DNA of 64,000 bases from Escherichia coli (GCF_001677475.2 NZ_CP015229.1); one strand, 5' to 3'; shown: positions 1,391 through 43,550, counted from the stretch's first letter. Notes: generated from the letters alone by a model not told the origin. Made by a program: numbers and translations.

Positions 1391-1466
1391 TGGTGCCCGG
1401 ACTCGGAATCGAACCAAGGACACGGGGATTTTCAATCCCCTGCTCTACCGACTGAGCTATCCGGGC
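1391..1466 (-). tRNA. pheV: tRNA-Phe (GAA anticodon)
   Basis: Reverse complement reads GCCCGGATAGCTCAGTCGGTAGAGCAGGGGATTGAAAATCCCCGTGTCCTTGGTTCGATTCCGAGTCCGGGCACCA, the E. coli tRNA-Phe sequence; the yqgA/speC neighbourhood identifies the pheV copy. Confidence 0.95.
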
Positions 1467-2300: not shown

Positions 2301-2676
2301 TATCTGATTTTCTTATTATGAACGTTTGGCACCTTCGATGGCTTGTTTGTTCGCAAAGTCCTGGCTTGCACGCTTTAGCGAAAGGTGCCATGATTGCGCG
2401 AATTTTCTCCTCTCTGTACGGAGTTTGCCCGATGCACGCCATCTCCTTACATTCTCTCGCTTATCGCCGTTTCGCGCGAAACTCTTCTCTTTTTATGCTA
2501 CTGCTTATGCGGTGAAGTTAACGCACGTTCACTGCAGGACAACAGTAAAATCAGAGCATTTCTGCTTTTACTGATGTCTGGCGGTCGGAGCTGGTGACCA
2601 GTTTGACCCATATCTCATGGGGCAGGGTTTTCCACCTTGTCCGGTATTCTTACTTCCCCGAAACGGGTTTGCGCTT

Positions 2677-4812
2677 ATGAAATCAATGAATATTGCCGCC
2701 AGTAGTGAACTGGTATCCCGACTTTCTACTCATCGCCGCGTGGTGGCGTTGGGAGATACTGATTTTACGGACGTCGCGGCAGTCGTCATTACCGCTGCGG
2801 ATAGTCGCAGTGGCATTCTTGCGTTGCTTAAGCGCACCGGTTTTCATCTACCGGTGTTTTTGTATTCCGAACATGCTGTTGAATTACCTGCGGGCGTTAC
2901 GGCGGTAATCAATGGCAACGAGCAGCAGTGGCTGGAGTTGGAATCCGCAGCCTGTCAGTATGAAGAGAATTTGCTGCCACCGTTTTATGACACGCTGACG
3001 CAGTACGTTGAGATGGGCAACAGCACTTTTGCTTGCCCTGGGCATCAACATGGTGCGTTCTTTAAAAAGCATCCTGCCGGACGCCATTTTTACGATTTCT
3101 TTGGTGAGAACGTCTTTCGCGCCGATATGTGTAATGCTGACGTAAAATTGGGCGATCTGCTTATTCATGAAGGATCGGCGAAGGATGCGCAGAAATTCGC
3201 AGCCAAAGTCTTTCATGCCGATAAAACCTATTTTGTCCTGAACGGCACATCGGCAGCGAATAAAGTGGTGACGAATGCGCTGTTAACGCGTGGCGATCTG
3301 GTGCTCTTCGACCGTAACAACCATAAGTCGAATCATCACGGCGCGCTGATTCAGGCGGGGGCGACGCCGGTCTATCTGGAAGCTTCACGTAACCCGTTTG
3401 GTTTCATTGGCGGTATTGATGCGCACTGTTTTAATGAAGAGTATCTGCGCCAGCAAATTCGCGACGTTGCGCCAGAAAAAGCCGAGCTGCCCCGCCCGTT
3501 TCGCCTGGCGATTATTCAGCTGGGAACCTATGACGGCACTGTCTATAACGCCCGCCAGGTGATCGATACCGTTGGGCATCTGTGTGATTACATTCTGTTT
3601 GATTCCGCATGGGTCGGTTACGAACAGTTTATCCCGATGATGGCGGATAGCTCGCCGCTGCTGTTAGAACTTAACGAAAACGATCCGGGGATCTTTGTGA
3701 CTCAGTCGGTGCACAAACAGCAGGCGGGATTCTCACAGACGTCGCAGATCCATAAAAAAGATAACCATATCCGCGGACAGGCGCGTTTTTGCCCGCATAA
3801 GCGGTTAAATAATGCCTTTATGCTCCATGCTTCTACCAGCCCGTTCTACCCGCTGTTTGCCGCGCTGGACGTTAACGCCAAAATTCATGAAGGGGAGAGT
3901 GGGCGTCGGCTGTGGGCTGAGTGCGTTGAGATAGGGATTGAAGCGCGCAAGGCGATTCTTGAGCACTGTAAGCTGTTCCGCCCGTTTATCCCGCCCATTG
4001 TTGATGGCAAATTGTGGCAGGATTATCCGACATCAGTGTTAGCCAGCGACCGTCGTTTTTTCAGTTTTGAGCCGGGGGCGAAGTGGCACGGCTTTGAAGG
4101 ATATGCCGCGGATCAGTATTTTGTTGATCCGTGCAAGCTGTTACTCACTACACCAGGTATCAATGCCGAAACTGGCGAATATAGCGACTTTGGCGTTCCG
4201 GCGACGATTCTGGCGCACTATCTGCGTGAGAACGGCATTGTGCCGGAGAAGTGCGATCTCAACTCCATTCTGTTCTTATTAACTCCGGCGGAAAGCCACG
4301 AGAAGCTGGCACAACTGGTGGCGATGCTGGCGCAGTTTGAACAGCATATTGAGGATGACTCGCCGCTGGCTGAGGTGTTGCCGAGCGTTTATAACAAATA
4401 TCCGGTGCGCTATCGCGACTACACCCTGCGCCAGTTGTGTCAGGAGATGCACGATCTGTATGTCAGTTTCGACGTCAAAGACCTACAAAAAGCGATGTTC
4501 CGCCAGCAGAGTTTCCCGTCAGTGGTGATGACCCCCCAGGACGCGCATAGCGCTTATATTCGCGGTGAAGTGGAGTTGGTGCGGATTCGTGATGCCGAAG
4601 GGCGAATTGCGGCAGAAGGGGCGTTGCCTTATCCACCAGGCGTGCTTTGCGTGGTACCCGGAGAAGTCTGGGGTGGGGCGGTTCAACGTTATTTCCTTGC
4701 GCTGGAAGAAGGGGTGAATTTGTTGCCGGGATTTTCGCCGGAGCTGCAAGGTGTCTATAGCGAAACCGATGCAGATGGCATGAAACGATTGTACGGTTAT
4801 GTGTTGAAGTAA
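2677..4812 (+). CDS. speC: Ornithine decarboxylase, constitutive
   Basis: 711 aa from ATG at 2677 (MKSMNIAASSELVSRLSTHRRVVALGDTDF...); fold-I PLP decarboxylase; the ORF-track start at 2617 is an upstream in-frame extension. Confidence 0.95.
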   Translation: MKSMNIAASSELVSRLSTHRRVVALGDTDFTDVAAVVITAADSRSGILALLKRTGFHLPVFLYSEHAVELPAGVTAVINGNEQQWLELESAACQYEENLLPPFYDTLTQYVEMGNSTFACPGHQHGAFFKKHPAGRHFYDFFGENVFRADMCNADVKLGDLLIHEGSAKDAQKFAAKVFHADKTYFVLNGTSAANKVVTNALLTRGDLVLFDRNNHKSNHHGALIQAGATPVYLEASRNPFGFIGGIDAHCFNEEYLRQQIRDVAPEKAELPRPFRLAIIQLGTYDGTVYNARQVIDTVGHLCDYILFDSAWVGYEQFIPMMADSSPLLLELNENDPGIFVTQSVHKQQAGFSQTSQIHKKDNHIRGQARFCPHKRLNNAFMLHASTSPFYPLFAALDVNAKIHEGESGRRLWAECVEIGIEARKAILEHCKLFRPFIPPIVDGKLWQDYPTSVLASDRRFFSFEPGAKWHGFEGYAADQYFVDPCKLLLTTPGINAETGEYSDFGVPATILAHYLRENGIVPEKCDLNSILFLLTPAESHEKLAQLVAMLAQFEQHIEDDSPLAEVLPSVYNKYPVRYRDYTLRQLCQEMHDLYVSFDVKDLQKAMFRQQSFPSVVMTPQDAHSAYIRGEVELVRIRDAEGRIAAEGALPYPPGVLCVVPGEVWGGAVQRYFLALEEGVNLLPGFSPELQGVYSETDADGMKRLYGYVLK

Positions 4813-4820
4813 GAAAAAAA

Positions 4821-4850
4821 CGGGTCACCTTCTGGCGACCCGTTTTTCTT
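4821..4850. terminator. Bidirectional rho-independent terminator between convergent speC and nupG
   Basis: A-tract, GC stem cgggtcacc..ggcgacccg, then T-tract (aaaaaaacgggtcaccttctggcgacccgtttttc). Confidence 0.6.
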
Positions 4851-4857
4851 TGCGTAA

Positions 4858-6114
4858 TTAGTGGCTCACCGTCTGTGTGCCTGTCGGGACACGAACGTGT
4901 TTATATTTGAACATCGCCATGAACGCGAAGGCCAGAACCACGGAGTAACCAGCGAAAATCAACCATACGGTCTGCCAGTCGGTAATGCCGTTTTGGGTGT
5001 ACATCTCAACAACTTTACCGCTCACGATGCCGCCAAGGATACAGCCGAAGCCGTTAGTCATCATCAGGAACATCCCCTGCGCACTGGCGCGAATTGCCGG
5101 GCTAACTTCTTTTTCGACAAACACCGAACCAGAGATGTTGAAGAAGTCGAATGCGCAACCGTAAACGATCATCGACAGTACCAGCAGCACGGTACCGAAC
5201 GGAGTCGGGTCGCCGTAAGCAAACAGCGCAAAACGCAGGATCCACGCCACAATACTGATCATCATTACGTTCTTAATACCGTAGCGGCTTAAGAAGAACG
5301 GGATAGTCAGAATGAACAGGGTTTCAGAGATCTGCGAAATCGACATGATGATTGACGCATGCTGCACGATGAAGCTGCTGGCAAACATCGGATCTTTGTC
5401 GAAGCTGTGCAGGAAGGTGTTACCGAACATGTTGGTAATCTGCAGTTCCGCGCCCAGCAGCATTGAGAAGATGAAGAAGATTGCCATACGTTTGTTTTTA
5501 AACAGCGCGAATGCATCGAGGCCCAGCAGGGTTGTCCAGCTCTGATTCGCTTGCTGTTTAGCAACCGGAATATGCGGCAGAGTCAGGGTAAACAGAACCA
5601 GAATGGCGGAAAGCGCTGCGCCAATATACAGCTGCATGTGGCTTAATTCGAAGCCAGACAGGCTCACCACCCACATTGCCATGATAAAGCCGATGGTGCC
5701 CCAGATACGAATTGGCGGGAAGTCAGTAACGATATCCATCCCGGCATTTTGCAGGCGATAGTAAGAGATGGTGTTGATTAACCCAAGCGTTGGCATATAA
5801 GCAAACGAGTTAATCAATATCACAAGGAACATCGCCTCCGGCGTAGTGACCTCTGCCGCCATGAACAGCGTGATAGCGCCAATGGTGTGGCAAATGGCAT
5901 AGACCCATTTCGCACTTAACCATTTGTCGGCCACAATCCCCAGCAGCGCAGGCATAAAGACCGCGGCGATACCCAGTGAGCTATAAACTGCGCCGATAGA
6001 AGCACCGTCAAACTTCAGGGTAACAAACATATAGGAGCCGAGGGTCGTCAGCCAACTTCCCCACAGACAGAACTGCAGAAAAGAGAGGATTTTCAGCTGC
6101 AGCTTAAGATTCAT
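4858..6114 (-). CDS. nupG: Nucleoside:H+ symporter NupG (MFS)
   Basis: 418 aa from the ATG at 6114 (MNLKLQLKILSFLQFCLWGSWLTTLGSYMF...), 12-TM transporter; the ORF-track start at 6162 is an extension. Confidence 0.95.
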   Translation of the reverse strand: MNLKLQLKILSFLQFCLWGSWLTTLGSYMFVTLKFDGASIGAVYSSLGIAAVFMPALLGIVADKWLSAKWVYAICHTIGAITLFMAAEVTTPEAMFLVILINSFAYMPTLGLINTISYYRLQNAGMDIVTDFPPIRIWGTIGFIMAMWVVSLSGFELSHMQLYIGAALSAILVLFTLTLPHIPVAKQQANQSWTTLLGLDAFALFKNKRMAIFFIFSMLLGAELQITNMFGNTFLHSFDKDPMFASSFIVQHASIIMSISQISETLFILTIPFFLSRYGIKNVMMISIVAWILRFALFAYGDPTPFGTVLLVLSMIVYGCAFDFFNISGSVFVEKEVSPAIRASAQGMFLMMTNGFGCILGGIVSGKVVEMYTQNGITDWQTVWLIFAGYSVVLAFAFMAMFKYKHVRVPTGTQTVSH

Positions 6115-6315
6115 GTTAATTTCCTCACATCGTGATGCGGATGAGTGTTTGAAAAAGCACATTTGACCGTGCGAGATGATGCGATTCTATCAATTTCGCG
6201 GACTGGTTTTTTGTTACCTGCGGCAAATAATTGCAAACATTCCCAATTTGCAAAACGAAATTGTGATGTGGATAACATTTTTGCCCCTGAGCATCGTCAG
6301 GGGCGGTTAGTGGAA

Positions 6316-7422
<1,107 letters not shown>

Positions 7423-7459
7423 TTATGCAAGTTGCCGGAGGCGTGCTCCGGCACTGTTT

Positions 7460-7738
<279 letters not shown>

Positions 7739-7762
7739 TCATCCTCTTTATCGACTCACGCG

Positions 7763-8815
7763 CTAAACCGGCGCGCCAGTGCGTAACTGCTGTAACAAAC
7801 GCTCCACGGGAGCCGCCAGGCCAACTGACGGCGGTTGCGCTAAGTTATACCAGAGCGCATTGCCTTCATCCATGCAGCCGGTGAATGACGACACGGGAAG
7901 CCACATAGGCACAATATCTAAGTGGAAATGGCTGAAGGTATGCCGAAACGCGGTCAGTTGCGTCAGGTTATCGGCAGCAATCTGCCGTTGCGCCAGCCAT
8001 AGTCGCAAACTTTCTTCATTGGCAAACTGCGGGAAACAGTATAAACCGCCCCACAATCCACTCGGCGGGCGCTGCGCCAGCAATACCTCATCATCATGCT
8101 GTAACAGTAAAAAGTAACCCGTGCGCTCCGGTAGCGTCTGCTTTGGTTTTTTGCCCGGATAAAGCGACCAGCTATTGTTGGCGGTGGCAATACATCCGTT
8201 TTGTAGCGGACAGAGCGAACATTTCGGCTTCGAGCGCGTACAAATCATCGCGCCCAAATCCATCATCGCCTGATTAAACCGTTCCACGCCGACCGCGGGC
8301 GTCATCTGCGCGCTCAAACTCCATAGTTTATTCTCGACCTCTTTTTTCCCAGGCCAGCCGCTTACAGCATAGCAGCGCGCCAGCACCCGTTTGACGTTAC
8401 CGTCGAGAATCGGAAAGTGCTTACCCAGAGAAAGCGAGAGAATCGCGCCTGCGGTGGAACGCCCGACGCCCGGTAACGCCGCGACTTCTTCAAAGGTTTC
8501 CGGGAATTTACCGCCGTGTAAGGTCGCCACTTGTTGTGCCGCTTTATGCAGATTGCGCGCGCGGGCGTAATAGCCAAGCCCGGTCCACAAGTGGAGAACT
8601 TCGTCGAGCGGCGCATTGGCGAGATCGGTCACCGTTGGGAAGCGCGCCATAAAGCGTTCAAAATAGGGGATAACGGTCGCAACCTGTGTTTGTTGCAACA
8701 TCACTTCTGAGAGCCATACTTTGTAGGGCGTCTTGTCAATTTGCCAGGGCAGCGTTTTCCGCCCGTATTTATCGTACCAGTCCAGAACCTGGGCTGAAAA
8801 TTGCGACGCTTGCAT
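7763..8815 (-). CDS. mutY: Adenine DNA glycosylase MutY
   Basis: 350 aa from ATG at 8815 ([25 protein letters not shown]...), HhH-GPD and 4Fe-4S cysteine cluster ([17 protein letters not shown]), C-terminal NUDIX-like domain. Confidence 0.95.
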
Positions 8816-8975
8816 GGTCACCGAATTCACTGTTGTTGGGGGCAAGATTGCAGCACAGCGACGGCAGGGTGTAAACCGGAACTTTCCGCAGCCACGGCCT
8901 TATCATGCTTGCATCCGGCAACTAACTTTGGATAATGCCCGTTTTCAGAACACTTTCACAAGCGACTAAATCTTT

Positions 8976-13287: not shown

Positions 13288-13327
13288 TGCCGGATAATAT
13301 AAAAGTTATCCGGCAAATTATTTTTTA
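13288..13327. terminator. Bidirectional hairpin terminator between convergent yggM and the TRAP permease gene
   Basis: tgccggataa-N9-ttatccggca followed by a T-run. Confidence 0.5.
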
Positions 13328-14046
13328 CATTAGCCCTAGTAGCTGTGGAATGAACAAGGATATTTGCGGAATGTAAGTGATCATCATCAACGCTACTAGC
13401 AATGCAGCATAAAATGGCAGCAATGGTTTGATTAAATGTTGAATCTTCACACCCGAGATAGAACAACCAACAAATAGCGCACTACCCACCGGCGGTGTTA
13501 ACAGCCCAATACAAAGGTTGGCCACCATCATAATACCGAAATGTACAGGGTCCATTCTCAGCTCTTGTGCAATCGGCAAGAAGATCGGTGTAAAGATTAG
13601 TACAGCCGGTGTCATGTCCATAAAGATGCCGACAATTAATAAGACGATATTAATCAGCAGCAATATGATCAGTGGGTTATCAGAAATCCCCATCAACGCG
13701 TCGCTGATCATATAAGGAATATCAGCATTGGTCATTGCCCAGGACATGCCCACGGAAAAACCGATCAACAGTAATACAATCGAAGTGGTAACAACCGATT
13801 CCAGAATCAGTTTGGGTAAGTCGCGCCATTTTACTTCCCGGTAAATCAGCACCGAGAGAATAAATGTGTAGACAACGGCAATTGCTGACGCTTCAGTTGC
13901 GGTAAAAATGCCGCCCAGAATGCCGCCCATCACAATGAACACCAGAAGCAAACTTGGTAGGGCATCCAGAAACGCTTTACAGGCCTGAGCAAAGGTTGCT
14001 CTTTCTGAAAGTGGGTAACCACGGCGTTTAGCAATAATGGCGCAGA
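13325..14046 (-). pseudogene. TRAP transporter large permease (DctM-like), 5'-truncated by the IS66-family insertion
   Basis: Minus-strand ORF encodes only the C-terminal ~208 aa of a DctM-type permease (...LTPPVGSALFVGCSISGVKIQHLIKPLLPF...); the N-terminal half is missing and the reading frame runs into the IS66 terminus at about 14047. Confidence 0.7.
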
Positions 14047-14076
14047 GTAAGCGTCAACGGAGCACCGTATTGACGC

Positions 14077-15669
14077 TTATTTATTGGTGAGAACCACGTT
14101 CCATGGCAGGAGTTCGTCAACACGGTTGGAGGGCCATTCCGGCAGTACGCTCAGAATATGGCGCAGATACGCTTCCGGATCGATACCGTTCAGACGGCAG
14201 GTGCCGATCAGCCCGTATAGCAGTGCACCACGCTCGCCACCGTGATCGCTACCGAAGAACACGTAATTTTTCTTTCCAAGACAGACTGCACGAAGCGCTC
14301 TTTCCGCTGTGTTATTGTCCGTCTCCGCCAGTCCGTCATCACTGTAATAACAGAGGGCGTCCCACTGATTCAGTACATAGCTGAACGCTTCGCCCAGTCT
14401 GGATTTTTTCGACAGCGTGCCATTCTTCTCCACCATCCATTCATGCAGCGACGTCAGTAACGCTTTGCTTCGCTGCTGTCTGACTGCAAGACGCTCTGAC
14501 TCTGGTAATCCCCGTATTTCATCCTCGATGGCGTACAGTTCACTGATTCGCTTCAGGGCTTCTTCTGCCGTCGCACTTTTGCTGCTGATGTATACATCGT
14601 GGATTTTTCTCCGGGCATGGGCCCAGCACGCAACTTCTGTCAGCGCACCACCTTCACGTTCTGCACTGAACAGCCTGTCATAACCTGTGAACGCATCCGC
14701 CTGCAGGATACCCCGGAAGGGGCGGAGGTGTTGCTCCGGGTGTTTCCCCTGCCGGTTCGGTGAGTACGCGAACCAGACCGCCGGAGGAGATGACGAACCC
14801 GCATTGCGATCATCCCGGACATACGTCCAGATGCGCCCTGTTTTCGTCTTTTTCAAGCCCGGTGCCAGTACCTTTACCGGTGTGTCGTCAGTGTGAAGCT
14901 TGCGGGTATTCATCACATAACGGTACAGGGCATCATTCAGCGGCATCATTAACTGGCAGCACGCGTCAACCCAGTTGGAGAGTAATGCACGGCTCAGTTC
15001 GACACCCTGTCGGGCAAAGATTTCACTCTGACGATACAGTGGCAGGTGTTCGCAGTATTTTCCCGTTAACACGCGGGCAAGTAATCCGGGGCCCGCGATA
15101 CCACGCTCTATCGGGCGGGACGGCGCCGGTGCTTCAATGATGCAGTCACATTTTGTACAGGCTTTTTTTACCCGTTCTGTGCGGATCACTTTCAGGGCGC
15201 TGCTCACCAGTTCCAGCTGCTCAGTACTGACTTCCCCCAGATAATCCAGCTCGCCGCCACATTCCGGGCAACAACTTTCTTCAGACTCCAGACGGTGTAT
15301 TTCACGGGGAAGGTGTGCCGGTAACGGACGACGATGGCGCGACTGTCGCAACTGGCGGGGAACCTGTGGATCGTCTTCCCGCCCACTGTAACGATCGCTG
15401 TCCTGTTCGCGTTGTTTCAGCAGGGCCTCAGCCTGTTCAACTTCACGACGCAGTTTTTCAGAACGGGTACCGAACAGCATCCGGCGCAGTTTTTCTATCT
15501 GAGCCCGCAGATGTTCTATTTCCCGTTCATCTTCTTCGATCTTTTCTTCGGCACGTGCCAGTGCAGAGCGCAGGAAGGCCTCCGTCTCTTCAACCAGACT
15601 CAGTTGCTGGTCTTTCTGACGGAGCTGGCTTTCCAGTTCTGCAATGCGAATGAGGTATTTCTGACTCAT
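14077..15669 (-). CDS. IS66-family transposase TnpC
   Basis: 530 aa with N-terminal coiled coil/leucine zipper, CxxC zinc-finger motifs (CPECGGEL, CTKCDC) and the DDE core region typical of IS66 TnpC. Confidence 0.9.
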   Translation of the reverse strand: MSQKYLIRIAELESQLRQKDQQLSLVEETEAFLRSALARAEEKIEEDEREIEHLRAQIEKLRRMLFGTRSEKLRREVEQAEALLKQREQDSDRYSGREDDPQVPRQLRQSRHRRPLPAHLPREIHRLESEESCCPECGGELDYLGEVSTEQLELVSSALKVIRTERVKKACTKCDCIIEAPAPSRPIERGIAGPGLLARVLTGKYCEHLPLYRQSEIFARQGVELSRALLSNWVDACCQLMMPLNDALYRYVMNTRKLHTDDTPVKVLAPGLKKTKTGRIWTYVRDDRNAGSSSPPAVWFAYSPNRQGKHPEQHLRPFRGILQADAFTGYDRLFSAEREGGALTEVACWAHARRKIHDVYISSKSATAEEALKRISELYAIEDEIRGLPESERLAVRQQRSKALLTSLHEWMVEKNGTLSKKSRLGEAFSYVLNQWDALCYYSDDGLAETDNNTAERALRAVCLGKKNYVFFGSDHGGERGALLYGLIGTCRLNGIDPEAYLRHILSVLPEWPSNRVDELLPWNVVLTNK

Positions 15670-15699
15670 GGCCGTTTTTATAATGCGGCCAGGCGTTTT

Positions 15700-16050
15700 T
15701 TACAACATTGTCAGGGCGTTAAGGCGGGATGTTTTTGGCTGACGCCAGTCCAGCTTATCGAGGAGCATTGCCAGTTGCGAGCGGGTAATGGATACCTTAC
15801 CGTCACGCACCGCAGGCCAGATAAACTGGCCTTCCTCCAGGCGTTTGGTGAACAGGCACAGACCATCAGCATCAGCCCAAAGAATTTTAACGGTGTCACC
15901 CCGTCGGCCACGGAAGATAAACAGGTGACCGGAGAAGGGATTAACATTTAACACATGCTGTACCTGTTCACCCAGCCCGTTGAAAGACTTACGCATATCG
16001 GTTATCCCGGCAACGAGCCAGATACGGGTACCGGATGGGAGTGAGATCAT
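15700..16050 (-). CDS. IS66-family accessory protein TnpB (Orf2)
   Basis: 116-aa ORF MISLPSGTRIWLVAGITDMRKSFNGLGEQVQHV...; stop overlaps the upstream orf1. Confidence 0.85.
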   Translation of the reverse strand: MISLPSGTRIWLVAGITDMRKSFNGLGEQVQHVLNVNPFSGHLFIFRGRRGDTVKILWADADGLCLFTKRLEEGQFIWPAVRDGKVSITRSQLAMLLDKLDWRQPKTSRLNALTML

Positions 16051-16466
16051 CTTCCCCTCCCGGTCAGTTCACGAATCAATACAGTGAGCAGCTCTGGTGA
16101 AGGATTTTCCAGCGTCATGTTACCGTGACGGAACTCCACCTTGCAGGAGCTGGCACTGACAGTAGTCTGAGTGGATAAGGGCGGAGTAAGAGCAGCCATC
16201 GGTTCTTTCGGCTCATCAGAGGTTATCTCTACAGGTAATAATTCAAGGCCTGCATCAGAAGTGGTTGTCACCGGAAGACGCCGTGATATACGCCCTTCGT
16301 TTTGCCAGAGTCTGAGCCATTTGAAAATAACATTATCATTGACGCCATTTTCTCGTGCAATCTGAGCCACACAAGCACCGGGTTGTGATGCCAGTTCAAC
16401 CATACGAAGTTTGAATTCATTCGAATACTTTTTACGAGGTTCTTTTCGCCAGTCCTGTAATTCCAT
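16047..16466 (-). CDS. IS66-family Orf1 (TnpA, HTH protein)
   Basis: 139-aa ORF MELQDWRKEPRKKYSNEFKLRMVELASQPGACVAQIARENGVN..., transposase_8-like HTH. Confidence 0.8.
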   Translation of the reverse strand: MELQDWRKEPRKKYSNEFKLRMVELASQPGACVAQIARENGVNDNVIFKWLRLWQNEGRISRRLPVTTTSDAGLELLPVEITSDEPKEPMAALTPPLSTQTTVSASSCKVEFRHGNMTLENPSPELLTVLIRELTGRGR

Positions 16467-16551
16467 ACTTAGATGTCCGTCTGTGTCAGATGGGCGTCTA
16501 AGTTACCAATTCTTGTCTAATGGCTACATACGGCGGTCGGTTTACGCTTAC

Positions 16552-16880
16552 CGCTGGCCTACACGCAGCGGCTTAAGGAAGCCGGATTACTGGCATCAAC
16601 AGGGAGTACTGGTGACTCGTATGACAACGCGATGGCGGAGAGCATCAATGGTCTTTACAAAGCGGAGGTAATACACCGTAAGAGCTGGAAAAACCGGACA
16701 GAAGTGGAACTGGCCACACTAACGTGGGTGGACTGGTATAACAATCGACGATTGCTGGAAAGGCTGGGCCATATTCCTCCGGCAGAAGCAGAAAAAGCTT
16801 ATTATGCTTCCATCGGAAATAATGATCTGGCAGCCTGAGTTCACAGATAAAATACTCTCCAGGAAACCCGGGGCGGTTCA
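16552..16880 (+). pseudogene. 3' remnant of an IS3-family element (IS629/IS3-group-like): OrfB C-terminus plus right inverted repeat
   Basis: Encodes ...YDNAMAESINGLYKAEVIHRKSWKNRTEVELATLTWVDWYNNRRLLERLGHIPPAEAEKAYYA, then ...actctccaggaaacccggggcggttca (complement of the IS3-type TGAACCGCCCCGGG terminus). The 5' part is replaced by the IS66 element. Confidence 0.7.
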
Positions 16881-17682
16881 TTCCGCCGGTGATGGCTGTG
16901 TCAGAAACTGCCATCCCGGAATGGCCACGCAGACCGCCAGCAATGCCGTACAGACACCTGTAACAAACGTTTTCAAAAACGTGAGCGGGGATTTTTGAAG
17001 GAAGAGTGTGGGCTCTGTTTTTGTTTCAGAAACAACATACACCAGACGGGAGTGCGGCAGGGTCTGATGTTCCTGCACATCCGGAGCTTCAAGCCTGAGT
17101 GCCTGCGCCAGTAGCGTTACCGGAGACGATACTTCCCCCTGCACAGGCTGGTTCTCCAGGCGGGTGATATATCCCTTCACCATGGCTTCCGGTAAAGCCA
17201 CTTTACTGCTCTGTTTAAGTTCGTGCCAAGCCTGCGTATTTTCATGGAAGGAGATCACTCAGTGTCTTCAGGAATGTTTCGGTCTGATACAGCAGGGGCA
17301 GGTTGCCACGGTTATCCGGAGGCATGGCCCGGAGCGTTTTTTGCAGACGGTTGAACAGACCGGTAATAATTTCCAGCCGGGAGTGTGTATTCAGCGGCCA
17401 CATCACTGACCAGTGATGCCGGGTCAGCGCAGCAATCAGAGCCAGCCCTTCATTCAGACCACTTAACCCTGTTGTATGCATCCGGGCAATGGTGTACCAG
17501 GATGCCGTCTGTAATTCCACACCATTGTGTTCATACAGACGCAGGCAGAGCGTTTCCACGTAACGCCAGTCCACATCAGGGCGTGCCGGGTGGGTCAGTT
17601 TGCTGATTTCATCGCGCAGGGCAGCATAATCCGGTAATGACCGGGGGTCACCACCGGTTTTCAGTTTCACTTCAGAAGTCAT
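16878..17682 (-). pseudogene. ImpA_N-domain protein (type VI secretion-associated TssA/VasJ-like), frameshifted and 3'-truncated
   Basis: Two overlapping minus-strand ORFs (17682-17242 and 17258-16878). The first carries an ImpA_N-like signature (GGDPRSLPDYAALRDEISKL...DVDWRYVETLCLRLYEHNGVELQTASWYTIARMHTTGLSGLNEGLALIAAL). The frame is broken near 17250 and ends at the IS3 remnant. Confidence 0.5.
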
Positions 17683-18075
17683 CGGCAGATTCAGTGTTTA
17701 GGTATTAAACCATTGTTAATTATAGGGAGAGAGTCAGTGCGATACCGTTACCCAGGAAAGGTATTCCACTGCGCAGATGATTGCCGGTGTCACATCCCAC
17801 CGCCGTTTCAGAACCGGTAACAGCTCATTAAGGTTTCTGATATAACGCTCAGTGAAAACCGGACTGATTACAGGTAATGGTGATATGACAGGTATCGTTG
17901 CCAATATACACGGCTTCCAGAGGTATGAATCTTACATTCCAGTACCAGGAGTACGGCGAGTGGTTCAGATGAAAAAGACGCATCTGAATATCGTTAAATA
18001 ACGGGTTCATGGCGAATTAAATAAACCTGATAATAACAGTATGGGGAAAGTCCGGAATAAAGAAATGGTCCGGTA

Positions 18076-19863
<1,788 letters not shown>

Positions 19864-20055
19864 AAACGCACCTTAATCTGTGAACAAAAAAATAATCACC
19901 ACCGACACCCACGACGTTATATCGTGGGTGTCGTTTTATTCAGAAATAAAAAACAGAATCATTAACATGACCGGAATACTGTGAACCATGCTGCAGGATA
20001 TCTGCAGATATCCCTCCTGTTATATCCGGCCGGAATAAAATCAGAACACTGATTG

Positions 20056-21300
20056 TCAGGCAGCTTCATTTTCCGCGTACTCCAGACTCTGCAGATACTG
20101 CAGCGCCGCCGGATCAGCCACATATTCCACCTGCCCGTGGTGACGCTCCACTTCATTAATGATTCTCTCAAGTTTCACGCGGAAAAATTCTTTACGCAGG
20201 TTAATCCTGTTAATGCGGTATTTTTCCAGACTGTCATGAAGTGTTTTTTCCAGCGCGGGCGCATCATCACAGGAAATCATGGCGTGAACATCAAAATCAA
20301 ACGGAACAGAAGCACCACTTAACTCTTTGACCCTGTCCATGGGTTCCAGCCGTCGGGTCATACCAATTTTAAAGACATCCTCACCAAACGAACCAATATT
20401 CGAAATGATATAAACATGCCCCTGTTTCGTAAGCTGAGCCATGGATTTAGCACGTTCATACTGCGCATGCGCTTCCTGAATTTTCTGTTCCAGCGCCAGG
20501 CGTTGTTTCTCTAACGCCTCCCTGTGAGCCCCTTCTGCTGCACGCAGCGCCTCTTCAATCAGTTTCTGCTGCTCAGCAAGACGCCGTTCTTCCTCTTCCG
20601 CTTCCCGCTGGCGCCGGTCAAGTTCATCCTGACGCTCTTTTTCTTCACGCATCTGACGCTTAAGCTCTGCCTGATATTCCTTTTCTTCCTGCGCTTTTTC
20701 CAGTAATGCCACTTTGTCCAGAAACTGTTGCCTGACACTCTCCCAGTCAGAATTATCTTCCAGGTTAAGAAAGGCTATTTTCTCACTGACAGCAGCGTAA
20801 GCCTCTCTTTCCTTACGAAGCTGATCATATTTGTTTTGCCAGTTATTAATCGTTACACCAGCCAGCAGAGTTTTCGCCTTAAATTTCCAGGCGGAATCAA
20901 CAATCCGTTGCATTGCACGGCTGGCCTTCTGTCTGGCGGTATGAAACTCCTCACGACGTCTGGCAAGTTGCTTCTTTTCCTGTCGTATTCCCCGGGCTAT
21001 CGCGGCATTGACAGTTTCATTAAAATCCCGCTCCCTCTGAACCAGCTCCGAAACGGCCTGCTCAAAGGCTGCTGTTTTCTTTCTGAGTCTCCGGTAAATA
21101 AAAAAACGAAGTAAAATTGCAAATACAGTAAGCAAACCAAAAAACAAACCAATAATACCTGCCGGATTCGATACTGCATCAATAAAGCGCTCATTAAGAT
21201 TTATCAGCGCCCTGACCGCCACATAAATCCCCCAGAGAATAACGCAAATTAAAATCAGGACAAATCCCGCTGCATTATCATCTTTTTTTCTTCCTGCCAT
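20056..21300 (-). CDS. Membrane-anchored coiled-coil protein with C-terminal T5orf172 (GIY-YIG-like) domain (DUF4041/T5orf172 architecture); candidate defence effector
   Basis: 414 aa. Two N-terminal hydrophobic helices (FVLILICVILWGIYVAV, IIGLFFGLLTVFAILLRFFIY), a ~220-aa charged coiled coil (E/K/R/Q-rich), and a C-terminal domain GHVYIISNIGSFGEDVFKIGMTRRLEPMDRVKEL...FDFDVHAMI matching the T5orf172/GIY-YIG-like fold. Confidence 0.7.
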   Translation of the reverse strand: MAGRKKDDNAAGFVLILICVILWGIYVAVRALINLNERFIDAVSNPAGIIGLFFGLLTVFAILLRFFIYRRLRKKTAAFEQAVSELVQRERDFNETVNAAIARGIRQEKKQLARRREEFHTARQKASRAMQRIVDSAWKFKAKTLLAGVTINNWQNKYDQLRKEREAYAAVSEKIAFLNLEDNSDWESVRQQFLDKVALLEKAQEEKEYQAELKRQMREEKERQDELDRRQREAEEEERRLAEQQKLIEEALRAAEGAHREALEKQRLALEQKIQEAHAQYERAKSMAQLTKQGHVYIISNIGSFGEDVFKIGMTRRLEPMDRVKELSGASVPFDFDVHAMISCDDAPALEKTLHDSLEKYRINRINLRKEFFRVKLERIINEVERHHGQVEYVADPAALQYLQSLEYAENEAA

Positions 21301-21455
21301 GACTTTCCTTTATTTTCCTTCTCAGTAACTGAATATTTATGATTAACGCCCTCCGGAAATATTTATACCCGGAAGGTTGTCCGGCTTTATGATGCCCGCC
21401 ACTACAGAATTAACTGCAGGCTGAGCACAGATTCCTCTGCTATTTCAGTGTCAGA

Positions 21456-21857
21456 TTAATACTGATTACCGGAACAAATGGGCAGATGCGTAAATCCGGG
21501 TTTGCTGGCCATATAAAGCGGCGCACAGGTGGGTTTACGGGGTTCAGTGACCGGTACAGCCTCATTTTTCTCAGCCACCGACGGTTGTGACACCTTCCGG
21601 GCAGCCGCTGATTTTTTCTTCTGAACCGGCTTAGTGGCGACTGGTGATTTCACCTGACGTCTGGCGGGTGCCACGCCATAACCGGAACAAAAGCGCTTCG
21701 ACTGACTCAGACTTCCGTCATTGCAGACAAAACGTCCGTCCGACGTGCAGTGTGAAATACCACCTTTAGCACCCGAGCAAGGCTTTCTTCCCCGTGCTGC
21801 ATCTGCCTGAACAGAAAATAAAATACCTGCTAACAGAAGATATATAAATTTATTCAA
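21456..21857 (-). CDS. Small secreted cysteine-containing hypothetical protein
   Basis: 133 aa with a clear signal peptide (MNKFIYLLLAGILFSVQADA) and a lysine/proline-rich C-terminal half; no family recognised. Confidence 0.45.
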   Translation of the reverse strand: MNKFIYLLLAGILFSVQADAARGRKPCSGAKGGISHCTSDGRFVCNDGSLSQSKRFCSGYGVAPARRQVKSPVATKPVQKKKSAAARKVSQPSVAEKNEAVPVTEPRKPTCAPLYMASKPGFTHLPICSGNQY

Positions 21858-23056
21858 TCGAATATCCCCGAATAATCATTTAGCATTTTTAACTATTAAA
21901 TTTACAGAGTTTCGGTCAATTCCTGCATCTTCACCACCTGGCTCAACTTTCTCCTTGTTCGTTGCACCAGGCCAGTTCCTTACCCGGATCAGGTTATTTG
22001 TTTTCGTAAGTATTGCCTCCGCTCAGCAACCTGAAGAGATAAAAGCAATAATAATGCAGAAATCAGCATCCGGGATAAAAAAGACCGATGGTTCCAGTAT
22101 GAGTTTTGCGCTTCAGATACTACGCACCTGCAACATGCTTTTTAGCAAAATAAAAACCTTTTGTTCATTGTATATCAACAATTGTCCAGCAACCTCCTGT
22201 CGATGCCTCCCACCATTTTTGCAATGGCACGCTACCGCCCTCCCGGAATTTACCTGCGTCAACAGGCACCAGAGCCCTGAGCAAAAAATAAACCATTTTC
22301 GACTGATTTAAATTTGACCATTATGGAATAATGATCAACAAAACATTAATATTACAGATATATCGAACAATACAACAGCAGCATACTGCTTATTATTCTG
22401 ACAATGATCACAAAACCAAAACACCGGTCAGCCCACTGATTTTGTTGCTGAACCCGGTATATCCACCGGTTTTCCACAGCCCGGGAGGAAGAGAGCATCA
22501 TAAGGCGTGATAGTGCCTCCGAACTCCACGGCTCCCTGAAAGCCCCCACCGGACTGCCATCCGGTATCAGCAGAAACTTTTCCGCAAATTAATAAAGAAA
22601 GAGAAAAGACAATAATAAGTAAAATATCAATTACAGCATCCTGACGCACATCCACTCCCCTCTGAGACTCCTTCACCTGTATTATTCACTCGTGGTGAAA
22701 TTTCTTTTATTTTTCTGTAAACCTCACTGAAGTCATCTTCCACCATTACATGACCTTCAATTCCCCTGATATGAAGTTCACAAAAAATACCTTTCTGAAC
22801 GACGAAACTGATATCTTTTATATTCACCAGAAGATTTCGCCCCTGCCTGCTGACAAAGTGAATAAACACGTCTGCCACTCAACACAAAAACATGAACAAA
22901 AGAATAAAAAACAAAAAAAGTCGAAGTTAAGAAGAAAAACTCTGCCGGAGTCTGAAAAATGCGATGTGGCACATCATTTGTCAGAAATAAAATGAAATTA
23001 CTTAAATGTATTTAATTTTATTTTTCAGGAGTGACTTACTGATTACACAGCTGGCG

Positions 23057-23815
23057 TTACCTGTACTCACAACAAAATGTATCCACTTTTTCCGGTCTGC
23101 CGAAATAAAACCCCTGCAGATAATCCACCCCCATAGAGCACAGACAGTTCACCTGCGCCTGTGTTTCCACACCTTCTGCCACCGTATCAATACCCAGCTT
23201 TCCTGCCAGCCCGACAATACTTTCCACGATATGCCGGGATGTCTTTTCACTCAGAATGTCCTGTGTGAAGCTTCTGTCCATTTTTATATAACTGACCGGG
23301 AAGTGCTTCAGGTACGACAGTACGGAACATCCGGTTCCGAAATCATCCAGCGCAAATGCCACTCCGGCATCACTCAGCCGGCTCAGTTTCTCTTCGGTCT
23401 GTCTGTCCATGTTAAACGGCTGCTGCTCCGTCAGCTCCAGAACCAGATGTATGCTGTCATGCCCTGCCAGCGCCAGACACATCTGAGTGAACTCACGCTC
23501 AGCCAGCAGGGCCGGCGTCACGTTCACGGCAAGCCGGAAACCACGCGGCAGCATGGCTTTAACCTCCGAAAGCCCTGCCACCGCACGGTTCAGGATTTTT
23601 TCCGTCACAGGCAACAACAGACCGGCAGATTCCACCCGGTTAATGAAATATGCCGGCGGAAGGATTTCTCCCGTCGGCATATGCCAGCGAACCAGAAGCT
23701 CTGCACCGGACATAGTAAGGTTGGATGCAGAAACCACCGGCTGGAGATACGGTTCAAACTCCCCGTTACTGAGCGCACGCATCAGTCTGTCTGCGGATAC
23801 AAAATCACTGTCCAT
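23057..23815 (-). CDS. EAL-domain c-di-GMP phosphodiesterase (stand-alone, MrkJ-like)
   Basis: 252 aa with conserved EAL-domain residues: E of the EAL motif in GAELLVRW, NVTP, ELTEQ, DDFGTG, KMD, EGVETQAQ, QGFYFGRP. Confidence 0.85.
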   Translation of the reverse strand: MDSDFVSADRLMRALSNGEFEPYLQPVVSASNLTMSGAELLVRWHMPTGEILPPAYFINRVESAGLLLPVTEKILNRAVAGLSEVKAMLPRGFRLAVNVTPALLAEREFTQMCLALAGHDSIHLVLELTEQQPFNMDRQTEEKLSRLSDAGVAFALDDFGTGCSVLSYLKHFPVSYIKMDRSFTQDILSEKTSRHIVESIVGLAGKLGIDTVAEGVETQAQVNCLCSMGVDYLQGFYFGRPEKVDTFCCEYR

Positions 23816-34216: not shown

Positions 34217-35716
34217 GTGACGCTCAATACTTCTCAGGTCAGTTACTATATGACTCAGCGTAAGAAAGGTATAACTCAGCATATCTCGGCCATGAAGGCT
34301 GGTATCTCAGTCCGTTCTGGTCGTCGGATCGAAAAAGGAGAGTGGGCAAAAAACAGTGTTCGGCACTGGCGCACACGCAAAGATCCTCTGGAAGCTGTGT
34401 GGGACAGCATGCTTGTTCCTCTGTTGAAAGAGAGGCCGGCTCTGACACCAACAACTCTACTGGAGATGCTACAGGATAAATATCCCGGCCAGTACCCCAA
34501 CAGCCTTCGAAGAACAATGCAACGGCGGGTTCGCGAATGGAAACTACAGTATGGTACAGAGCAGGAGGTCATGTTCCGCCAGCAACATCAGCCCGGCCTG
34601 CGAGGCCTGTCGGACTTTACTGAACTGAAAGGTGTAGTTGTCACCATCGCCGGTAAGTTGTTGGCGCATAAGTTGTATCACTTCCGTCTGGAATGGAGCC
34701 ACTGGAGCTGGATGCGGGTTGTTCTGGGTGGTGAGAGCTTCTCTGCTCTGGCTGAAGGCCTGCAGGAAGCCCTCGGACAACTGGGCGGAGTGCCGGTAGA
34801 ACATAAAACGGACAGCCTGAGGGCAGCATGGAAACAACAGGGCGAAGATGGACGCCGCGAGCTGACTGAGCGTTATGCTACTCTCTGTCAGCACTACGGA
34901 ATGCAGGGCGTACACAATAATGCCGGTCGGGGCCACGAAAATGGCTCGGTTGAAAGTGCCCACGGACATCTGAAAAGGCGTATCTGTCAGGCGCTGATAC
35001 TGCGGGGCAGTAACGACTTCAGCACCATAGAAGAATATCAGGCCTTCATCACTCAGCAGGTTATGCGGCACAACCGTAACAATCAGGATCTGGTCAAGGA
35101 AGAACGTCTTCATCTGAAACCGCTGCCGCTTCGTCGCAGTGCTGACTATGATGAGCTGACTGTGAGGGTTAGTCGCAGCAGTACCATCAATGTGAAGCAC
35201 GTCGTCTACAGCGTACCTTCCCGGCTTGTAGGTCAACTGTTACGGGTCAGGTTATGGGACGATCGTCTGAGCTGTTACGTTGGCAGCAGCGAGGTCATGA
35301 GCTGCCCTCGCGTCAGACCAGAAAAAGGGAAGACGCGGGCCCGTCGTATCGACTTCCGACATGTGATCGACAGTCTGGCAAAAAAGCCCGGTGCGTTCTG
35401 CCATGCAACGCTGAGAAATGACATCCTGCCGGACGATGAATGGCGGAGGCTGTGGCGTCGCTTATGTAATCATCTGGAGCCCGATATGGCAGGAAGGCTG
35501 ATGGTACATGCCCTGAAACTGGCTGCAGGATACGACGATATCTCAGTCGTGGCAAAAGGTATGGAGCAGATGCTGAATACCCCGGGAAACGTGGATCTGC
35601 ACCGGCTGATGCGCTTCCTGGGTATAAAAGAAAAGGCGTTGCCGGTAGTCAATGTGATACAGCATAACCTGAGCAGTTATGAGCAACTACTGCGTGGCAA
35701 GGGAGGTTCGCAGTGA
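34217..35716 (+). CDS. istA: IS21-family transposase IstA
   Basis: 499 aa, N-terminal HTH and integrase-like core, typical IstA length and organisation. Confidence 0.85.
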   Translation: MTLNTSQVSYYMTQRKKGITQHISAMKAGISVRSGRRIEKGEWAKNSVRHWRTRKDPLEAVWDSMLVPLLKERPALTPTTLLEMLQDKYPGQYPNSLRRTMQRRVREWKLQYGTEQEVMFRQQHQPGLRGLSDFTELKGVVVTIAGKLLAHKLYHFRLEWSHWSWMRVVLGGESFSALAEGLQEALGQLGGVPVEHKTDSLRAAWKQQGEDGRRELTERYATLCQHYGMQGVHNNAGRGHENGSVESAHGHLKRRICQALILRGSNDFSTIEEYQAFITQQVMRHNRNNQDLVKEERLHLKPLPLRRSADYDELTVRVSRSSTINVKHVVYSVPSRLVGQLLRVRLWDDRLSCYVGSSEVMSCPRVRPEKGKTRARRIDFRHVIDSLAKKPGAFCHATLRNDILPDDEWRRLWRRLCNHLEPDMAGRLMVHALKLAAGYDDISVVAKGMEQMLNTPGNVDLHRLMRFLGIKEKALPVVNVIQHNLSSYEQLLRGKGGSQ

Positions 35717-36468
35717 GCAATATCCATCACCTTGAACATAGCCTGCGTAAACTACGCCTGACACGAGTTGGAGCTGAATGGCACGCTCTGGAAAAACGAG
35801 CGCTGGCAGAAGGCTGGACACCATCGCGCTATCTTCTGACGCTATGCAATGAAGAACTCCTGTGGCGCGAGAGTGAAAAACTGCGTCGTTATAAAAAGGA
35901 GGCCCGGTTGCCAGTTGCCAAAACGCTGAGCGAATACGACTTCAGTCAGGTGCCGGAACTGAATGGAGCTCAGTTCCGGCAACTCTGTGAAACGACAGAC
36001 TGGGTTGATGCAGGAGAAAACGTTCTGCTGTTCGGAGCCAGCGGGTTGGGGAAAAGCCATCTGGCGGCAGCGATCGTGGATGGCGTAGTAGGTCAGGGCT
36101 ACCGGGCCCGGTTCTACAGCGCAGGAGAGCTGTTGCAGGAACTACGTAAAGCCAGAGCTCAGTTGAAACTGAATGAGCTGCTACTGAAACTGGATCGCTA
36201 CCGGGTGATAGTGGTGGATGATCTTGGCTATGTCAAACGCGATAGTGCCGAAACGGGTGTGCTGTTCGAGTTAATAGCGCATCGCTATGAACGTGGGAGC
36301 CTGGTGATAACCAGTAACCATCCGTTCAGCATGTGGGGCAGCATCTTCGTGGATGAGACTATGGCGGTGGCTGCGGCAGACAGGCTGCTCCATCACGGAT
36401 ATATGTTCGAACTGAAAGGGGAAAGCTACAGGAAAAAGACAGCGAAGGCAGTAACAAGCGCGACTTGA
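35713..36468 (+). CDS. istB: IS21-family helper ATPase IstB
   Basis: 251 aa, Walker A LLFGASGLGKSHLAAAI, Walker B VIVVDDLGY; overlaps the istA stop. Confidence 0.85.
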   Translation: MSNIHHLEHSLRKLRLTRVGAEWHALEKRALAEGWTPSRYLLTLCNEELLWRESEKLRRYKKEARLPVAKTLSEYDFSQVPELNGAQFRQLCETTDWVDAGENVLLFGASGLGKSHLAAAIVDGVVGQGYRARFYSAGELLQELRKARAQLKLNELLLKLDRYRVIVVDDLGYVKRDSAETGVLFELIAHRYERGSLVITSNHPFSMWGSIFVDETMAVAAADRLLHHGYMFELKGESYRKKTAKAVTSAT

Positions 36469-36574
36469 TGTCGCCCTGAAGGGTGCGGCCAGTATAGTTG
36501 GCGCGAGTCGGCAAAACTAGTTGACGTCTAATACCTGCAGTCTTCACAGGCGTTACAAAATTTACAACGTCAAC

Positions 36575-37482
36575 TGGGATTAATAGCCGGAGGTGAGGCT
36601 GGAAAACGGGCTGCAACGGCAGTGGGTCTCCGTTGCAGTGCAGATACTCATCTTCGCAGGGTTATCAATACCCCAGAGACGAAACTGTCAGGCTCATCCC
36701 ATGTCGGTATTGATGAGTGGGCGTGGCATCGGGGCCACCGTTACGGTACGTTAATCGTCAATCTTGATACTCACCGTCCCCTCGTCCTGCTTCCCGGCCG
36801 TGATCAGCGTACGCTGGCGACCTGGTTCAGAAAATATCCGGAAATACAGGTTGTCTCACGTGATCGCAGTGGAGTCTATACGACAACAGCACGTGTAGGT
36901 GCACCTCAGGCCAGACAGGTGGCCGATCGATGGCACCTGCTAAAAAATATTGGCGATGCGCCTGAACAAATGATGTACAGACATATACCTCAGATACGTC
37001 TTGTTGCCAGTGAGTTGTCACCAAAGAAATCACCTGATCCAGAACCATCTGTGCCTGCAGCATCGCTCCGTCGTCCGGAACACCTAAAACAGCAAACCCG
37101 CAAAAAACGGCATCAGCATTGGACAGAGGTTATGGCCCTGCATAACAAGGGATGTAGTTTCAGGGAAATATCCCGTATTACAGGCCTGTCGCGTGTGACA
37201 GTCAGTCGCTGGGTACGTTCAGGAACATTCCCTGAAATGTCAACCCGACCTCCAAAGCGAGGGCTTCTGGAACCATGGCGGGAGTGGTTAAAAGAGCAAC
37301 GAGAAAGTGGTAATTATAACGCCAGCCAGATATGGCGGGAAATGGTGGCCCGGGAGTTTACAGGCAGTGAAACCATTGTCAGGGATGCTGTTGCCAAATG
37401 GCGTAAAGGCTGGATCCCACCGGTTACTACTGCCGTCAGACTTCCTTCAGTGTCCCGGGTAAGCCGCTGGTTGATGCCCTAG
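36575..37482 (+). pseudogene. ISL3-family transposase, DDE-domain portion (downstream half of the split gene)
   Basis: ...GIDEWAWHRGHRYGTLIVNLDTHRPLVLLPGRDQRTLATWFRKYPEIQVVSRDRSGVYTTTARVGAPQARQVADRWHLLKN, a DDE_Tnp_ISL3-like core. Confidence 0.6.
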
Positions 37483-37583
37483 AGAATAATCAGGGATGAA
37501 GAAAATTATGCTTCCTGATTTATTAGTCTGATGTGTGAAAAAGAACCTGAGCTGAAAATAGCGCAGCAACTGGCACTCGAGTT

Positions 37584-40860
<3,277 letters not shown>

Positions 40861-40892
40861 TGATTTTGATATGTTCAATCCAGCATCAAATG

Positions 40893-42101
40893 AAGGTTAA
40901 TTTATGGCCGAAAAACAGTTACAGACTCTGGCTAACGAACTGGCCAAAAACCTCAAAACCCCTGAAGACCTCAGTCAGTTTGATCGGCTGCTGAAGAAGC
41001 TCAGCGTTGAAGCCGCTCTCAATGCAGAATCTTGGGTATGAGAAAAATCAGTCCAGACCAGGAGCTAACTCCCGCAACGGTTATTCCACAAAGACCGTTA
41101 TCACAAGCGACGGTCCACTGGAACTGCGTACTCCGCGCGATCGTGAAGCTACCTTCGAACCACAACTGGTAAAGAAAAATCAGACCCGTATTACCGGGAT
41201 GGATAACCAGATCCTCTCGTTGTATGCCAAAGGGATGACCACCCGTGAGATAGCTGCTGCGTTCAAAGAACTGTATGACGCAGATGTTTCACCGGCACTG
41301 ATATCAAAGGTCACCGATGCCGTGATGGAGCAGGTTGTAGAATGGCAAAACCGACCACTGGATGCTGTTTACCCCATTGTTTATCTTGACTGTATCGTCC
41401 TGAAAGTTCGGCAGGACAGTCGCGTCATCAACAAATCGGTGTTCCTGGCACTGGGCATCAATATCGAAGGTCAGAAAGAACTGCCAGGTATGTGGCTGGC
41501 CGAAAATGAAGGGGAGAAGTTCTGGCTCAATGTGCTGACTGAACTGAAAAACCGCGGTCTGAACGATATCCTCATCGCCTGTGTGGATGGCCTGAAAGGC
41601 TTCCCGGATGCCATCAACACAGTATATCCGAAGGCCTGCATCCAGTTATGCATCGTGCATATGGTGCGCAACAGCCTGCGCTTCGTGTCATGGAAGGACT
41701 ACAAAGCCGTCACTCGCGACCTGAAAGCGATTTATCAGGCTCCCACGGAAGAGGCAGGTCAGCAGGCACTGGAAGCGTTCGCTGCGGCCTGGGACAGTCG
41801 CTATCCTCAGATAAGCCGAAGCTGGCAGGCTAACTGGCCGAATCTTGCCACGTTCTTCGCTTATCCAACGGACATCCGCAAAGTGATCTATACGACGAAT
41901 GCCATCGAGTCGCTAAACAGCGTGATCCGCCATGCGATCAAAAAGCGTAAAGTGTTCCCGACAGACGACTCGGTGAAAAAAGTGGTGTGGCTGGCAATCC
42001 AGTCTGCGTCCCAGAAATGGACGATGCCGTTGAAGGACTGGCGAATGGCAATGAGCCGCTTTATTATCGAGTTCGGTGACCGCCTGGACGGTCACTTCTG
42101 A
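40893..42101 (+). pseudogene. IS256-family transposase with an N-terminal frame break
   Basis: Core ...YSTKTVITSDGPLELRTPRDREATFEPQLVKKNQ...IACVDGLKGFPDAI...TTNAIESLNSVIR is IS256-like; the first ~45 codons (MAEKQLQTLANELAKNLKTPEDL...) are in a different frame. Confidence 0.7.
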
Positions 42102-42181
42102 GAAAAGGCATTTACACAGAATCCTAAACAGGCTCTCCATTCCGGGAACGGCATCACCGCAAACTGCGCCGGAGGCAACCA

Positions 42182-42616: not shown

Positions 42617-42783
42617 ATCTCCTCCTTGTATCTTGACAATTGGTTAAAATAACTATGATTAGATTTGGCAAAGTGTATGTAGTCCGATCCCTCAAGGGAT
42701 TCATAGCCCGTAGCTCAGCGAATGGCGCATACACTGAGCCACTCATCTGAAACCCGAACAGTTGTCAGTACGCCATAACGCAT

Positions 42784-43550
<767 letters not shown>

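Follow-up and report, generated by a model that had tools for sequence, protein, structure and literature searches.

Within the 64,000-nucleotide stretch of Escherichia coli DNA analysed here (the window), the interval 16878-17682 is made up of two open reading frames (ORFs), both on the minus strand, whose ends agree exactly with the coordinates given in the first-pass annotation. ORF1 (17682..17242) spans 146 codons and terminates at a stop at 17242-17244, and ORF2 (17258..16878) encodes 126 aa from a GTG start; the two overlap by 17 nt in different frames. Residues 8-109 of ORF1 (about 17356-17661) match the Pfam family ImpA_N (PF06812) with E = 1.1e-18 and 67.9 bits, the gathering cut-off being 26.9 bits. 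This match is far beyond chance and bears out the domain assignment that had been made earlier. The domain had also been described as encoded in two overlapping frames; the gene is indeed split in this way, but the domain lies whole inside ORF1. For ORF2, the Pfam search returned no family, VasL and POTRA included. ORF2 encodes a hydrophobic membrane segment, LKTFVTGVCTALLAVCVAI (about 16920-16976), with a Kyte-Doolittle maximum of 2.08 over 19 aa.

Searches with tblastn and blastp aligned both ORFs to one intact 455-aa ORF of enteroaggregative E. coli (EAEC) strain 042 (NC_017626.1 4884070-4885437; L007 6071-7438), with ORF1 95% identical to its residues 1-145 and ORF2 85% identical to its residues 143-266. 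The 042 ORF encodes ImpA_N at residues 8-109, a hydrophobic helix, and VasL (PF12486) at residues 306-449 (E = 1e-37). An intact ORF of 454 aa occupies the equivalent region of E203449 (L004 8442-9785), so that a single uninterrupted frame of 454-455 codons is found in both strains. Judging by its domain architecture and position, we take the 042 ORF to be the published TagA (locus tag EC042_4550). The TagA class of TssA-like proteins is composed of ImpA_N, a hydrophobic segment and VasL, while TssA has a VasJ-type C-terminus; ImpA_N is common to both (PMC6745524).

The gene in the window is the broken front half of tagA and belongs to the TagA class, not to TssA/VasJ; the family label given at first was misplaced, the closest relative being the ImpA_N and VasL ORF of 042, that is, TagA. 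Pfam matches and alignment to 042 assign 17245..17682 (minus strand) to the 5' part of the pseudogene, encoding TagA residues 1-145, and 16881..17240 (minus strand) to its middle part in a shifted frame, encoding residues 143-266, which comprise the linker and the hydrophobic segment. The latter is the same segment as in 042 TagA (about residues 235-253) and is present in the window but out of frame with ORF1. TagA is encoded by one uninterrupted ORF of about 450 aa, but the window copy is split and ends at codon 266. A tblastx search with the part of 042 tagA that codes for VasL found no such remainder anywhere in the 64-kb window. Lacking VasL, the window holds a truncated derivative and not a complete TagA member.

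A shorter query had at first suggested that no full-length relative exists, since the 146-aa ORF1 returned only matches of at most 256 aa, many of them labelled 'partial'. The 454-aa query overturned this view by retrieving many intact proteins of 441-465 aa with ImpA_N and VasL from E. coli and Salmonella.

We also considered a remnant of the core component TssA itself (class A, the sheath-assembly cap, with ImpA_N and VasJ), which has ImpA_N in common with ORF1 and TagA but differs in its C-terminal architecture. We assign this reading a negligible probability: both ORFs follow the 042 ImpA_N and VasL ORF at the identities given above, and Pfam detected no VasJ-type domain in either of them. 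Moreover, 042 has its tssA elsewhere in the cluster, as a gene of 1,599 bp to which the window sequence is not orthologous, and a tblastx search with tssB-tssE, tssA included, gave no match in the window. The orthologue of the window gene is instead the TagA of EAEC 042/17-2, a class B TssA-like accessory protein of the Sci-1 type VI secretion system (T6SS). In EAEC, TagA is a binding partner of TssA that arrests the sheath once extended and keeps it at the membrane; it is not essential, yet a tagA mutant retains only about 12% of antibacterial activity (PMC6730261, PMC6450956). TssA is brought to the membrane by TagA, and the TagA of Vibrio cholerae was reported to keep sheaths from assembling, probably through competition with TssA (PMC6450956, PMC6745524). 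In contrast to EAEC TagA, the window copy is frameshifted, cut at codon 266, and has neither VasL nor adjacent tss genes.

The 16-nt insertion and the fate of the reading frame

DNA alignment locates the frameshift to a net 16-nt insertion at 17240..17255 (minus strand), which reads approximately ATCTCCTTCCATGAAA in coding-strand orientation and has substitutions next to it. The insertion sits after codon ~145 and puts a TGA in frame, about 36 codons downstream of the ImpA_N domain. It is present in the window and in M217 and absent from the alleles of 042, E203449 and TW10722, so the earlier proposal that a frameshift destroyed the gene holds. Distant homologues from Pantoea and Atlantibacter cross the insertion point in one frame, like the intact E. 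coli allele, which identifies the 16-nt insertion as the derived state.

Frameshifts in single assemblies are often errors, and the first-pass annotation had itself named a sequencing error joining the two frames into an intact gene as the case against its reading. However, a 52-mer spanning the insertion recurs without a single mismatch in 322 complete E. coli genomes out of 5,426; these were assembled independently, so that the insertion must be inherited and not a sequencing error. The lesion also does not resemble a homopolymer slip, being a net gain of 16 nt with adjacent substitutions, and repairing the frame would still leave a gene that ends at codon 266 on an insertion sequence, with VasL absent from the window. 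An assembly error concealing an intact gene is hence barely credible.

Alternatively, programmed ribosomal frameshifting might join the frames into a functional split-frame gene, a reading favoured by the 17-nt overlap of two adjacent frames and by how common the allele is in E. coli. Joining would require a +1 shift at ...CTT CCA TGA A..., where no slippery or prfB-like motif was recognised by inspection, the only method applied to this site. All intact orthologues, on the other hand, are single ORFs that lack the 16-nt insertion, and the joined product would in any case lack VasL in the window. The neighbouring 101-aa gene is broken as well, by a 29-bp deletion, which fits general decay. Recoding at this site is therefore extremely unlikely.

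Taken by itself, ORF1 reads cleanly through its 146 codons from the native start and contains the whole of ImpA_N; in related genomes, RefSeq lists its product as a normal protein (WP_001403216.1). Its product could conceivably act as a soluble decoy for TssA or the sheath end and modulate a T6SS encoded elsewhere, making it a pseudogene-born regulator. Such a role would agree with the near-invariance of ORF1 over the 322 genomes and with the recruitment of TssA by TagA and the block of sheath assembly by V. cholerae TagA (PMC6450956, PMC6745524). The near-invariance is, however, equally explained by recent common descent of the allele, ORF1 differs from the intact alleles by 5-6 non-synonymous changes where the two intact alleles differ from each other by 1, and the sampled carriers have no adjacent T6SS. 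On balance, we regard a regulatory role as very unlikely.

We estimated dN/dS by the Nei-Gojobori method for the two parts of the gene. Between the window and the intact alleles it amounted to 0.13-0.22 for the ImpA_N part and 0.32-0.34 for the linker and hydrophobic part, compared with 0.04 and 0.14, respectively, between the two intact alleles, each value being based on 1-13 substitutions per class. Drawn from so few substitutions, the contrast would fit relaxed constraint on the window copy.

About 1,100 E. coli genomes carry the locus, and the state of tagA was then compared across strains. It is an intact single ORF in 042, E203449 and OkiPb01677, each with a complete T6SS cluster beside it. 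M217, KKa019 and Bongo carry the 16-nt frameshift, and 7/2 carries it together with an IS2 insertion; none of these four sampled carriers has a T6SS at the locus. In TW10722, which likewise has no T6SS beside tagA, ISEc23 is inserted at about codon 338, and in STEC2017-197 a different frameshift (about codon 115) is combined with truncation near codon 269, with a tssE pseudogene as the only T6SS gene beside it. The window combines the 16-nt frameshift with truncation by an IS629-like element at codon 266 and has no T6SS in its 64 kb. Judging by the IS2 insertion of 7/2, the ISEc23 insertion of TW10722 and the separate frameshift of STEC2017-197, tagA decays in several independent ways once the secretion genes are gone.

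The alleles of M217, KKa019, Bongo and 7/2 resemble the window copy most closely, with the same 16-nt insertion and 99.6-99.8% identity, and alignment showed that M217 also has the same 29-bp deletion in the 101-aa gene. These strains still have the part encoding VasL, in the shifted frame, with ibrA/ibrB/perC after it, whereas in the window everything past codon 266 is lost at the IS junction. Conversely, the window retains the GIY-YIG gene, which the frameshift-allele strains do not have.

Truncation by an IS629-like element and the adjoining IS66 element

Immediately downstream of the tagA fragment lie the right-hand 329 bp of an IS3-family element (16552..16880, plus strand), comprising the 3' end of the transposase gene and the terminal inverted repeat. 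Pfam matches to rve_3 (E = 1.3e-8) and rve_2 (E = 6.5e-8) cover 16635-16838 on the plus strand. The remnant is 98.5% identical to complete copies in O157:H7 and other strains. Database records call these simply 'IS3 family transposase'; by its inverted repeat, we take the element to be IS629-like. Complete IS629-like copies have the same terminal repeat as the remnant, of which the window keeps only the last 329 bp.

An alignment that included two tagA alleles and two complete copies of the IS fixed the boundary to the nucleotide. The last base that derives from the IS is 16880, where the sequence closes with ...CCCGGGGCGGTTCA; its reverse complement is the left end, TGAACCGCCCCGG..., with which a complete copy starts. 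As in other IS3-family elements, the end is CA: the window is identical to the complete copies up to ...GGTTCA and departs from their flanks right after it. IS3 matches running 6-9 bp past 16880 proved, in the same alignment, to be chance extensions into unrelated flanks. The last three bases of the element, TCA, read TGA on the minus strand and form the stop codon of ORF2. Homology to tagA stops at 16881/16882, that is, at codon 266, directly against the terminal inverted repeat. Both the ending of the gene at an IS3 remnant and its truncation by an IS, as originally proposed, are thus confirmed: the rve_3 and rve_2 matches and the inverted repeat ending at 16880 define the remnant, the frame stops at codon 266 on this IS629-like repeat, and VasL is nowhere in the window.

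The junction between the IS and tagA was absent from all 5,426 complete E. coli genomes, and no exact match was found among the GTDB representative genomes (one per species). TW10722, the lone record with at least 80% coverage in the junction search, matches in three separate pieces and lacks the IS3 remnant.

On its other side, the IS629-like remnant is bounded by a complete IS66-family element (14047..16551, minus strand), recognised by Pfam matches to DDE_Tnp_IS66, TnpB_IS66 and HTH_Tnp_1, with tnpA at 16047..16466, tnpB at 15700..16050 and tnpC at 14077..15669, all on the minus strand. It is 93% identical to ISEc23 of TW10722. The IS66-family element cuts the IS3-family element, and the rest of the IS629-like copy is gone at that boundary. 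The 8-bp sequences flanking the IS66-family element differ (GGCGCAGA vs CGCTGGCC), so there is no target-site duplication, and the DctM TRAP-transporter gene on its far side (13325-14046) is reduced to its C-terminal half (profile positions 218-413), cut at the IS66 end. The unlike flanks and the truncated DctM gene together point to an IS-mediated deletion or rearrangement rather than simple insertion, and suggest that the IS66 rearrangement joined the core chromosome (ansB-yggM side) to the island.

Flanks of a Sci-1-type T6SS core

In 042, the cluster runs from tssB to tssM and on through tssA, tssF, tssG, tssJ and tssE, followed by a 133-aa hypothetical gene, a GIY-YIG gene, a helicase annotated as '3'-5' exonuclease', a 101-aa hypothetical gene, tagA and, later, ibrA/ibrB/perC. 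The gene order of E203449 is that of 042. The cluster of OkiPb01677 passes straight from tssE to the 101-aa gene and tagA, which indicates that the GIY-YIG and helicase block is a variable insert and that tagA belongs to the T6SS cluster.

The upstream neighbours of tagA in the window are those of EAEC 042, in the same order. Next to tagA lies a remnant of the small 101-aa gene (17734..18010, minus strand; alignment with 042, M217 and E203449), inactivated in the window and M217 by a 29-bp deletion at about 17855/17856 that leaves ORFs of 53 aa and 56 aa. The annotations of M217, KKa019, Bongo and 7/2 call this gene 'frameshifted', and E203449 carries a different, 1-nt insertion in it; neither Pfam nor PADLOC gave a match for the 101-aa gene. 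Three intact genes on the minus strand follow, all of which 042 has between tssE and tagA: a NERD and UvrD helicase (18076..19863; PADLOC candidate C3a187, E = 1e-142), a T5orf172/GIY-YIG protein (20056..21300; PADLOC PD-Lambda-1, E = 4e-88), and the 133-aa hypothetical (21456..21857). Since the helicase and GIY-YIG pair occurs in the clusters of 042 and E203449 and not in that of OkiPb01677, it looks like an inserted defence cassette. From its sequence context, this cassette of the T6SS cluster looks to have outlived the T6SS in the window. A defence-system reading of the ImpA_N gene itself was discarded, because PADLOC gives TagA no match and only the neighbours match defence models.

By blastn, window positions 16882-21856 are collinear with 042 from the 133-aa gene to mid-tagA (L007 1865-6867) at 94.3% identity, and this collinearity with the 042 T6SS island stops at 21856, exactly where tssE would come next. 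Beyond this point, blastn identified a diverged copy of the 042 intergenic region between the DUF4222 gene and tssB (22030..22418, no strand assigned). Its part 22302-22375 is 76% identical to 042 L006 22740-22813, just upstream of tssB, and the whole of 22030-22418 is 72-73% identical to the equivalent segment of the T6SS-less strains M217 and TW10722. Neither a tblastx search with the 27.5-kb tssB-tssE region of 042 nor Pfam searches of the ORFs detected any Sci-1 tss gene in the 64-kb window, and the part of the second T6SS of 042 used as a tblastx query had no match there either; the absence of a T6SS and of an intact tagA thus applies to the 64-kb window rather than to the whole genome. 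With 16882-21856 and 22030-22418 kept and the tss genes missing, the window has the flanks on either side of the T6SS core without the core itself. The orthologues of the window gene lie at the end of complete Sci-1-type clusters in 042, E203449 and OkiPb01677, and the retained flanks support the initial suggestion that the locus is a T6SS relic.

The position held by the T6SS core in 042 is occupied in the window by other genes. Minus-strand genes at 23060-32454 encode an EAL-domain protein and a chaperone-usher fimbrial system of the K88 type (Fimbrial_K88). The fimbrial operon includes no fewer than three genes for subunits, a fourth giving a weak match, along with genes for a DUF5462 protein, a PapD-like chaperone and an usher of 825 aa. 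Further on, 34217-43281 is dense in insertion-sequence genes, with no fewer than five families represented: IS21 by two istB genes, one of them after a probable IS21 transposase gene, and in addition ISL3, IS3, IS256/Mutator and IS110. The segment 43592-63478 is collinear, at 80-95% identity and in matching orientation, with the part of the 042 pheU island that carries hha, inovirus Gp2, Ag43, antirestriction, radC and cbtA/cbeA. A tRNA-Phe gene lies near the left end of the window (1391-1466), with 12 kb of core genes between it and the island; by the adjacent speC/nupG region it is presumably pheV. This layout suggests a rearranged island. For the core genes speC-nupG-mltC-yggX-mutY (2617-8845), the best identity among the 5,426 complete E. 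coli genomes is 98.7%, with none at 99% or above. The source falls within the E. coli/Shigella group, outside that set of genomes, and its wealth of insertion sequences might fit a Shigella-like lineage.

Taken together, the feature is very probably what is left of a tagA gene, without function, where a Sci-1-type T6SS island has eroded at its edge. That it is orthologous to tagA and carries two lesions, that synteny is kept and that the window has no tss genes are matters of observation; from these we infer the order of events, a T6SS that was lost rather than never present, and loss of function. The missing tssB-tssE and the broken 101-aa gene mark the downstream edge of the island as eroded, and no T6SS function is expected.

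By analogy with TagA, the ancestral protein would have contacted TssA and the sheath end through ImpA_N and been anchored in the membrane by the hydrophobic segment, with VasL completing it. The 16-nt insertion after codon ~145 probably came first, shifting the frame and leaving a 146-codon ORF with ImpA_N only. An IS629-like element of the IS3 family would then have come to abut codon 266, with the whole of VasL missing. Subsequently, the IS66-family element may have cut the IS629-like copy, and a later rearrangement may have joined IS66 to the truncated DctM gene. The window copy would yield at most a soluble 146-aa ImpA_N fragment, the membrane segment being out of frame and without a native start.

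The remnant is an ordinary pseudogene whose biology is known, and hundreds of public genomes already contain its frameshift allele, annotated there as an ImpA_N-domain protein or a pseudogene. Only the IS junction is specific to the window. Beyond annotation the tagA fragment has little import; it identifies the IS-rich island here as one that formerly carried a Sci-1-type T6SS.

Annotation of intact tagA genes in public genomes

RefSeq breaks the intact tagA ORFs of 042 and E203449, each a single open frame, into three pseudogene fragments: an ImpA_N protein 'missing C-terminus', a 'POTRA domain-containing' or 'hypothetical' protein, and a VasL protein 'missing N-terminus'. These three-fragment calls are an annotation artefact, and one that affects the very strain in which TagA was characterised. 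Given that even the intact 042 tagA is split, pseudogene calls for this gene in public records are untrustworthy without an ORF check.

The PGAP label 'POTRA/ShlB' had also raised the possibility of a ShlB-type gene at 16882-17008, which we rejected because ORF2 has no POTRA match and the label derives from a chimeric O157 protein. The protein in question, WP_001457510.1 of O157 strain 644-PT8 (L014 4961-6007), is a chimeric ORF of 348 aa with ShlB-type POTRA_2/POTRA_3 domains at residues 65-180, to which a C-terminal tail of about 55 residues derived from tagA is fused (residues 286-339, matching 216-269 of TagA). This chimera appears to have given rise to the 'POTRA/ShlB' label that PGAP gives to the hydrophobic part of tagA in many genomes.
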